Shown one piece after another: positions 9,001-12,000 of a DNA stretch of 44,405 bases; positions within the stretch are counted from its first letter, which is position 1, and every line of letters starts with the position of its first letter. Location of the stretch: contig JAVHOV010000016.1 in assembly GCA_036170245.1 (NCBI GenBank), forward strand, positions 1 through 44,405, in the 5' to 3' direction. The stretch is from an archaeon. GTDB lineage: Archaea; Iainarchaeota; Iainarchaeia; Iainarchaeales; JAAZKV01. Made by a program: the position numbers.

Positions 9001-12000
9001 ATGCATACACGGAGGGAAAAAATTTGGTTCAATCTTTCCGACCAATTTCAAATCAAAAGACTTCTTTTCCATCACCACAAGCTGCGAATCAATGCTTCTT
9101 GCAAGAGTAAGAATGTTTTTTGGAATACTTTTTTCAGGGATTGGAAGGGAGTTGAAAACCTTAGCATAAGCTTTTTCTGCCAAAAATCTTGCAAAATCAT
9201 TTGAGTTAAGCAAAATTTTTCCGTTATACACCTGCTTATTCACAACTTTGCTTTCATTATCCACAAAAAATATCTGCAAGTAATCAAGCAAATCAACTTC
9301 CACAAAACCCTTTTCTTCAGAAACTTTGTATTTCAATTTAAAATCATCCGCAAGATCAATACACAAGTCAAAAGTAAAATCAGCTTCAACTAAATTGTTA
9401 AAAGTGTTCTTGAAAACAAACATAGAAAATTTTTCAATCATATTGCTTGTCTTCATTGCAGAAACAAACATTTTTGAAATAGGAAAAGCAATTACTTCAA
9501 GCTCTAAAACTTCATTAGTTGGATTTTGCGAATCAAAAACATAAGGAGTGTTTGAGAAAGCTCTTGAAACCATTAAAGCGGCTTTTTTAACAGCAGTTTC
9601 AGAAACATCATCAACTGAAATATTCATTTCTTTTAGTATATCACGGGCACGCTCTGTAAAAGGAAACTTCTGTGCAAAAAAGAGCTTATCCATACCAAAA
9701 CAATTGGGTAAAAAGCCTTAAAATAAAATCGAAAATACCCTAAAAAAAGAAACTACCTTAAAAATCAAAGAATCATATGAGCCAAATAAAAAACCATTTT
9801 GCTGGGACCGATTGAGTAAGTTACACGCATTGCAGAATCGTTTTTTAATTCAATCAAAATCTGCTTTTCATTAGGAGCCTGCTTAATTATGCTTTGAAAA
9901 AAATTAAGCGAAAATTTTGCAGTAACATCCACTTTTGAAGTAATATTTGAAACCTTGCTCGCTTCAGCATCCATTACTCCGCTTGAACCTTTTGCTTCAA
10001 CAAAAAACTTTCCATTTGCAACTTTAAGAACAATGCTTGAACCAAAAAGAGAAGCATCTTTGAGAACTTCTTTCAATGAAGAAGCATTAATGTCAATTTT
10101 TGCCTCATAAGTAATATCAGGAGTTTTTGCTTCGTCGCCTGAAACATCAATCAAAGGAAGACGAAAGTTTCTTCGCATATCAGAATCAAAACTGATTTTC
10201 ATTTCAGCATCAGAAATATCTAAAAGAAGTTTATCATTAGCTAAAGATCTCTGCAAAATCTTGTTGAGTTCAACCAAATCAACTCCAACAAAATTCGGTT
10301 CAATATTGTACTTGTCAAAAAACTTTTTGTCAACAAAAAAATCAACTAAAACAACTTGGGATGGATCAATTGCCTTAAACCCAACACCTTTATCAGAAAA
10401 CCTAAAATTTCCTTCAGGAACAAATGCAGAAATGGATTCTACTGCGCTTCTAAAAAAATCTGACTGTTTTAGTTCAATCATTTTAGTTACCTTACATGAG
10501 AACAATAGAGAAGTATTTAAGAATTGCTTTAGGGGGGTTAAAATTAAACCCCCAAAACCCCTAACCTAAATTAATCATAAAATAAGTGCAATTAACAAAC
10601 AACCTAATTTAGCTGTTTTGGTTTTGATTCTCTTTTCAACGCCAATTGGGACGCAAGTCTTGCAGCAAGAGAAAGTTGATAGTGTTTTGCCGCAACAGTT
10701 GATCCTATTCTGCCCAAATTACTACTAGCAATCTCTTTGGATAGCTCTCTTTCAACTTGGGAGTATACTTTAAGTGCTTTAGATCCATGAATAATAACCT
10801 CTGAACCAACTTCATAAGAATCACGTAACTTTTTCATAGAAGAATCCTTCTCTGCTAATCTATTAAGTAAATCTAAAGATTCAAATGTATCAAGAGTTAT
10901 TCCTTTTTTTGAAAAAACTTCAGCAACTTGTTTTATTTGCTTAACAGCCTTAGATCGCATATGTCTTCTTGATCTTACATGCGCGTTAAAGCTAATTCTT
11001 TTTTTTAAACTAACTGCTCTTTTAATAAGACTCAAATAAACACCAAAATAAATACAGACAAAAGAAATAAAAAAAGAGGGTTAGCCCCTAAATAAAATCA
11101 AAAACGCTTTTTTTTAGAAAAATTAAGCATTCTCTATTCTTGGAGCTAAAAAGTAATTAACCCTAGCATCTCCAATTGAGTAAGAAACTCTTACAGGAGC
11201 GCTTGACTTTAGTGACATACTAACCTTAGTGTCGCTTGATGCAGCTTTTAGCATGTCCTGCAAGTAATCAAGTGGAAACATACTTCTGCATTCTTTTTTT
11301 ACCCTTAGTTCTGGCAAAGAATCCTTATTCTGCTTTACTTCTTCATTTAAATTTCCTTTAGAAGAAGTTGCTTTAACAAAAAACTTTTCTTCACTGCACC
11401 CCAAAACTACATGACTGCTAATTAGTGCAGCATCTTTGAAAGCATTCTGCAAAAATGAAGCTACAATAATCATTTCAGAATCAAATTCAATTCTAGGGTT
11501 AGGAACTTCACTAGTTGAAATATCAATTAGAGGAACCTGAAAAGACCTTTCTGCATGACCCCTAAAAGTGACTGCTAAGAAAGCTTTCTTTTCATCAAGA
11601 GACAATACTAATTCATCCCCACTTTGGGCTCTTGACAACACTTGATTTAAATAATCTAAATCCAAACCTAATCTAGTATCAGTAACATCAAATTTTTCAA
11701 ATGATTTTGCAGGAAGAGAAAAATCAACCATTGAAATTTGTGAAGGGTCAGTTGCTTTAAGTTCAATTCCATTTGCCGAAACAACTAGTTCAGCTTCATC
11801 AATTAAAACAGCAATAGCTTCCATACTTTTCTTAAAAACGTCAGCACTCTTCAAAACTAGTTCCATTTTATTTCACGACCCTTTAGTAATAATAGAAGAG
11901 AGTTCATTAGATTTAAAAACCGAACTTTACTAAAAAACTTGTGACAATTAATTAGCCTTAATTTTCTTATAATCAATAATCTTTCCGCTAGAATCAAGAG

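Follow-up and report, generated by a model that had tools for sequence, protein, structure and literature searches.

A retained pair of PCNA paralogues in the primase operon of Iainarchaeota and a possible division of partner enzymes between them

The eukaryotic 9-1-1 complex (Rad9-Rad1-Hus1) is a second sliding clamp made of PCNA paralogues. In Archaea, crenarchaeal PCNA paralogues form heteromers, among them the S. solfataricus PCNA1/2/3 heterotrimer (2HII/2IX2/2NTI) and the S. tokodaii PCNA2-PCNA3 heterotetramer (3AIX), as described in the sections on these systems in PMC3504372 and PMC4894655. The same sections present T. kodakarensis PCNA1 (TK0535) and PCNA2 (TK0582) as separate rings with a differing subunit interface, and PMC3914693, where it deals with TK0582, places the gene in an integrated element and finds it dispensable. 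Fixed PCNA paralogues are usually treated as a crenarchaeal peculiarity: extra PCNA copies are ascribed to Crenarchaeota and mobile elements in the relevant part of PMC3914693, and the Sulfolobales heterotrimer is the only one named among such innovations in the passages of PMC12680538 on the subject. A class-wide case that arose independently, in genomes of ∼1 Mb, would be a natural replicate of a homomeric ring turning heteromeric, or splitting in two, after duplication, with single-copy sister phyla and possibly a pre-duplication protein as built-in controls; as it comprises two small soluble proteins and a few PIP peptides, the question is directly testable. The count of two is already published, in that Supplementary Table 1 of PMC12680538 (2025) gives PCNA = 2 for 6/6 Iainarchaeota in three orders and, in the rows consulted, PCNA = 1 for Nanoarchaeota, Aenigmatarchaeota and others. 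The passages of that paper on PCNA, DPANN and Iainarch, and its section 11, do not discuss the pair, although it may appear in the figures or in supplementary file 2 or 6, and within a literature coverage that excludes most subscription papers no paper on, or analysis of, the Iainarchaeota/Diapherotrites pair was found.

The window analysed here is a stretch of 44,405 nucleotides from an Iainarchaeota genome (contig JAVHOV010000016.1 of GCA_036170245.1, positions 1-44,405). On its minus strand, pcnA (11123..11866) is an intact ORF for a standard-type PCNA of 247 aa with the tail LAPRIENA (hereafter A), and pcnB (9765..10481) is an intact ORF for a second-type PCNA of 238 aa, counted from the ATG at 10481, with the tail LAHMIL (hereafter B). 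About 70 bp downstream of pcnB, and on the same strand, lies priL for the primase large subunit (8659..9693; PF04104), followed by priS for the small subunit (7505..8659; PF01896), gins51 (6895..7446; PF22090, PF05916), the aIF2-alpha gene and PAC2. A and B are identical at 79/240 positions (33%) and are the sole two PCNA matches in the source genome, which bears out the initial annotation of two such genes in a primase operon. Both carry PF00705 and PF02747, with PCNA_N and PCNA_C above the Pfam cut-offs; by TIGR00590, A is over the cut-off and B slightly below it (89.8 vs 99.1). Predicted models have a pLDDT of 93.4 (A) and 94.9 (B), and the model of B shows the full two-domain fold, matching Thermococcales PCNA at a TM score of 0.92-0.95 and 1.6 Å.

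The pair extends throughout the class. With a B-type profile, whose matches per genome are not strict copy numbers, 200 of 215 genomes gave at least two matches, 11 gave one and four gave none; at least two were found in 185/196 genomes of the order to which the source genome belongs, in 15/19 of the other orders and in 56/58 class genomes that are at least 90% complete. The initial annotation had described an order-wide pair, with two or more loci in 60 of 61 genomes; the presence in the order stands, the distribution is wider, and the earlier figure was not reproduced as given. Full-length A and full-length B occur together in 141 genomes (146 A and 155 B in total, for the part of the class that was retrieved), and both types are present at loci L175 and L176. 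The initial annotation had left other DPANN phyla unchecked; three sister phyla almost always give a single match to a general archaeal PCNA profile that does detect B in Iainarchaeota: 147/151 in Micrarchaeota (double in three, none in one; the count takes in the unpublished genome G194), 54/61 in Altiarchaeota (multiple in three, none in four) and 25/31 in the phylum of G163 (multiple in two, both fragments, and none in four). In a search of the whole library with the B profile, B-tailed proteins among the best 150 matches were confined to the B clade, and the only one of these that bears a taxon name belongs to Diapherotrites. One Altiarchaeota genome contains a further PCNA match that spans almost the full length but scores very weakly (G341:C145:156-851, E 1.5e-7); it is probably a separate diverged copy.

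Exceptions within the class are of several kinds. In G023 and G421, B occurs alone and is sited at a contig start, so the single match there looks like an assembly gap. G151, of family f33 in another order and 94% complete, has one PCNA (L063, L228) with an unrelated gene upstream of priL; the protein has a standard tail and is without the A-derived interface residues described below. This single copy looks real rather than the product of an assembly gap, and the protein is a candidate for the pre-duplication state. G418 and G419 (family f36, ∼80% complete; L212, L213) have a single long-branched PCNA with altered pocket and interface, situated outside the usual operon. A quick tree places this protein within A (SH 95), which suggests that B was lost, although the long branch makes the placing unsure. 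At L323 and L324 (G427 and G428, family f34), one stop codon falls inside the pcnA profile match and may simply end a tail that is naturally shorter.

A tree of 70 rows with outgroups included (LG+C20, careful mode) recovers B at 100/100 and A at 98/92. The two types thus remain separate clades once outgroups are added, a check that the initial annotation had lacked; its split into two clades holds, with the support of A below the 100/100 given for each, and its 35-sequence tree was not reproduced as given. A, B and the G151 protein are united at 97/93; their sister clade consists mostly of rows with Micrarchaeota titles, and Altiarchaeota branch next to it. The stem of B is much the longer (0.75 vs 0.12 for A). 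Grouping of B with five crenarchaeal-type rows, of which two are named Thermoprotei via cluster members and none is a Sulfolobus sequence, is rejected (AU p=0.0002), supporting an origin of the Iainarchaeota pair that is independent of the crenarchaeal paralogues. Neither a position of B outside A + Micrarchaeota (AU p=0.31) nor a union of A and B without G151 (AU p=0.29) is rejected, and the tree alone therefore leaves the timing of duplication unfixed. Gene order is informative on this point. [quoted passage not shown] Of the 141 pairs, 114 were recovered within a single locus, and in every one of these A lies upstream of B on one strand, spaced within 150 bp in 35, within 2 kb in 55 and further in 24; the other 27 were retrieved separately or are unlinked. 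The gap is only -2 to 14 bp in f34 (12/12) and f37, suggestive of translational coupling, and tight coupling is also seen in part of f31, whereas A and B are hundreds of kb apart in G002 and G034. The Iainarchaeota pair resembles the crenarchaeal paralogues as vertically inherited chromosomal genes with diverged partner pockets and interfaces, and differs in comprising two copies of separate origin, one of them standard, in small, PolD-retaining DPANN genomes. The single-copy, homotrimeric PCNAs of Micrarchaeota, Altiarchaeota and the phylum of G163 are closest by tree, and several keep the same operon.

Both copies have been maintained. In the source organism's genus the median dN/dS is 0.095 for A and 0.111 for B, and in family f30 it is 0.068 for A and 0.11 for B, values computed with dS near saturation and after pairs with undefined dS had been dropped (13/45, 11/45, 5/21 and 10/21); they indicate that both A and B are under purifying selection. 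Mean identity between 34 families is 50% for A and 48% for B, and the distances of the two across these families correlate (r = 0.75). The GC and GC3 of B match those of A and of the genome, and no relative was found in viral contigs or phage records. These data, together with the distribution and the two clades, support the earlier view of A and B as old orthogroups retained near-universally in the class, neither recent nor viral. T. kodakarensis likewise has two PCNAs in one genome with a differing subunit interface; unlike TK0582, B occurs class-wide, in a core operon and under purifying selection.

The copies differ at the edge where partners dock. A ends in LAPR in 142/146 proteins. The claim that B always ends in L/I-A-H-M did not hold, as [LI]AHM is present in 136/155 full-length B proteins, and the earlier counts of a fixed signature (24/24 and 11/11) were not reproduced as given; the 19 exceptions include all six of family f3 (LSSM) and six of f34 (LAP-L/I). 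What is fixed in B is length: in 155/155 proteins the chain runs four residues past [LI][AS], neither more nor fewer, and the last three residues are hydrophobic (pcnB C-terminus, 9765..9785, minus strand). The A-P-R tail is found in 0/155 B proteins and is kept in 53/53 sampled Micrarchaeota and Altiarchaeota proteins, like A. Lack of the canonical A-P-R/K edge makes B less like a standard PCNA without lowering its claim to the role of a clamp subunit. With two gap columns set aside, 18 columns are fixed differently in A and B, of which 11 are B-derived, four A-derived and three unclear. The B-derived columns (A numbering) are 21, 46, 152, 196-198, 201, 238, 242, 243 and 245, and all but 21 (10/11) map at or beside the predicted partner site, where we presume 152 and 238 to belong. 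Positions were mapped via the yeast alignment, by which B 189/191/194 correspond to 206/208/211 and, in continuation, B 234-236 to human 252-254. Ala252, Pro253 and Ala208 are at the pocket for the PIP glutamine according to PMC8191301, and the C-terminal zipper involves Afu Pro240 and Arg241 according to PMC3504372. The hydrophobic pocket is kept in most B proteins (I/V/L, I/L/V and P). With changes at the glutamine pocket next to a retained hydrophobic pocket, B has a docking site of which one half is rebuilt. With roles taken from yeast and human PCNA, the B sequences thus indicate a remodelling of the glutamine-pocket side and the C-terminal zipper strand, and A, by the same residues, retains the ancestral partner-docking edge. 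Two other proposals were rejected: a lost hydrophobic pocket in B, which derived from the source genome alone (A118, T120, A217) and does not apply to most B proteins, and a 'histidine swap' between 152 and 242, which the coupling analysis did not support (rank 8189 of 29403).

At the ring interface, A carries the derived residues Y72, Q75, Q140, S168 and K170, its A-A contact residues being as conserved as those of single-copy PCNAs. R79, R107 and D145 are conserved in both types, and direct coupling analysis of 372 outgroup PCNAs ranks the intersubunit pair R79-D145 second, such that A-B cross-pairing is not barred. The inner-helix K/R counts of the four helices are broadly like those of the outgroups, and lower in helices 2 and 3 of A. 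On an assumed helix and loop geometry, E71 of B (frequency 96%) could pair with K170 of A (84%), and Y72 of A with F146/G147 of B. For two interface strands the contacts follow the description in PMC4892588; no paper on the interface residue I175 was found. A coupling score trained on the outgroups identified the cognate partner in 67-83% of the outgroup pairs withheld from training. For the Iainarchaeota pair it ranks homo pairing over hetero pairing in 20-24 of 34 families, which are not independent of one another, a slight lean against a mixed ring. Paired covariation across 141 genomes (Neff 97) gives no excess of A-B/B-A over A-A/B-B, and a predicted A2B2 complex scored 0.30 vs a mark of 0.32, counted neither for nor against binding.

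The search for a loader returned at most one RFC-L over the cut-off per genome, with one in 31/33 genomes, and the second RFC matches have the length expected of RFC-S; this profile search would miss a loader that is very diverged. A single RFC-L was found in the source genome (NF003229 over cut-off; profile-match coordinates 29496..30674, minus strand), with a short C-terminal QxxLF motif. RfcL = RfcS = 1 in six Iainarchaeota rows in Supplementary Table 1 of PMC12680538 as well, so that the search disclosed no loader dedicated to B. In this respect, and in that B matches only PCNA_N and PCNA_C in Pfam, the pair is unlike 9-1-1, which has its own loader subunit. On the partner side, we take the C-termini of PolB, DP2, RNase HII, UDG and a 410-aa protein of the source genome to be canonical PIP-like ends, so that a standard site would be needed and would be supplied by A. 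No B-specific partner motif was found in Fen1 tails, which are alike in Iainarchaeota and Micrarchaeota, or in RFC-L tails, which are mixed (5/30 and 3/22 Fen1 loci and 1/30 Iainarchaeota RFC-L loci being ignored as wrong ORFs), and a search of the 86%-complete source genome did not recover Fen1. Sorted by eye, the RFC-L C-termini of 29 readable Iainarchaeota loci (of L384-L413) comprise 16 with short QxxLF, 10 with a longer PIP-like motif and three with neither; a C-terminal PIP-like motif was seen in 1/22 Micrarchaeota loci, one of the 22 ending in masked sequence. The QxxLF motif recalls QLTLF, which prefers Sulfolobus PCNA2 according to the section on that motif in PMC3504372.

Taken as a whole, the pattern of changes suggests that the two copies divide partner enzymes between them, whether in a single mixed ring or in two separate ones, and we consider it quite probable that duplication and such a division of partners took place in Iainarchaeota. 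[quoted passage not shown] In sequence, A retains the standard site at which QxxLxxF/W PIP boxes dock, and B the fold, the core ring contact, the basic inner helices and the hydrophobic pocket, with a rebuilt glutamine pocket and zipper strand. Under our preferred reading, to which we assign a probability of roughly 45%, A and B would assemble as a mixed ring, either A2B or of variable composition, which the one RFC would load, with A taking canonical partners and B taking a different partner or excluding some, similar to Sulfolobus but separately evolved. This is consistent with joint retention (200/215 genomes, and 56/58 of the more complete ones), the near-overlap of pcnA and pcnB in f34 and f37, R79/D145 in both types, one RFC-L per genome with no separate B loader found, and the crenarchaeal precedent. 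The same assembly is harder to reconcile with a coupling score that favours homo pairing, with covariation that has no A-B or B-A excess, and with changes that A made on both faces (72, 75; 140, 168, 170) and B made at 81 with 137, which would fit self-pairing; the genes are often apart (>2 kb in 24/114, and G002 and G034), G151, G418 and G419 have one PCNA, Fen1 PIP boxes are alike in Iainarchaeota and Micrarchaeota with no B-specific partner found, and several PCNA genes are no proof of a heterotrimer, a point made in the discussion of multiple PCNAs in PMC4894655. The chief rival reading is that of two homotrimers, A3 as a general replicative clamp and B3 as a specialised one (repair, primer hand-off or lagging strand), with interfaces that diverged against mixing. 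The asymmetric stems, the matched changes that each copy made on its two faces, the homo-over-hetero scores, the frequent separation of the genes and the two separate rings of T. kodakarensis all point that way, whereas the missing second loader and the tight gene coupling in f34, f37 and part of f31 do not, and the coupling score is weak and the covariation test neutral; two rings are a serious possibility at somewhat less than even odds. A specialised clamp of second origin, as first proposed, has support in its independent origin and, from sequence, in its specialisation, and it may be heteromeric.

Other readings fare less well. It is doubtful that the mixed ring is an obligate two-type clamp (A2B, AB2 or alternating four-subunit), independently evolved, in which B would read a glutamine-independent motif and so fix enzyme order in a minimal DPANN replisome. 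Standard five-subunit clamp loaders are built for a three-subunit ring, and this, the conservation of A-A contacts as in single-copy PCNAs and the lack of a covariation signal make an alternating A2B2 ring improbable as the main form, even though the two types are in apparent 1:1 coupling in basal families, the presumed E71-K170 and Y72-F146/G147 contacts could pair, and the S. tokodaii PCNA2-PCNA3 heterotetramer offers a precedent in the sections of PMC3504372 and PMC4894655 cited above. That B, and not A, adjoins priL in most loci and has an atypical docking edge could reflect a non-sliding adaptor or regulator of PCNA fold, capping A or holding a partner such as primase or GINS; conservation of both ring faces and of basic inner helices in B, and a B model that matches ring-forming PCNAs at 1.6 Å, leave little likelihood for such a role. 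Archaeal extra PCNAs are often of mobile origin, as the part of PMC3914693 on such copies notes, and placement of B outside A + Micrarchaeota survives the AU test (p = 0.31), yet a mobile-element or redundant copy without a core role is largely refuted by the distribution: near-universal presence in the class, a fixed place in a core operon, purifying selection with genome-like GC and GC3, and searches of viral contigs and phage records that found no relative make it highly implausible.

The remaining observations concern the DNA around the pair. Just 3′ of the pcnA stop, a hairpin with a T run (11075..11089, minus strand) resembles a terminator by consensus match only, two such matches being observed vs 1.3 expected in shuffles. 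Between pcnA and pcnB is an ORF of 143 aa (10604..11035, minus strand) that has no match in Pfam, NCBIfam or Atlas, and tblastn over all loci retrieved gave no relative outside the source genome. As pcnA and pcnB lie 63-96 bp apart in the majority of close relatives that carry the two within a single locus, this orphan ORF is a local insertion and is outside the conserved system. The gap between the two genes (window 10506-11122; loci L082-L121 and L231-L310) is an insertion hot spot, ranging from -2 bp to 7.9 kb. Further upstream, the block orf325-csl4-rpoL (window 13374-15469) is inverted relative to the peptidase-like gene and pcnA, as compared with most Iainarchaeota and Micrarchaeota loci.
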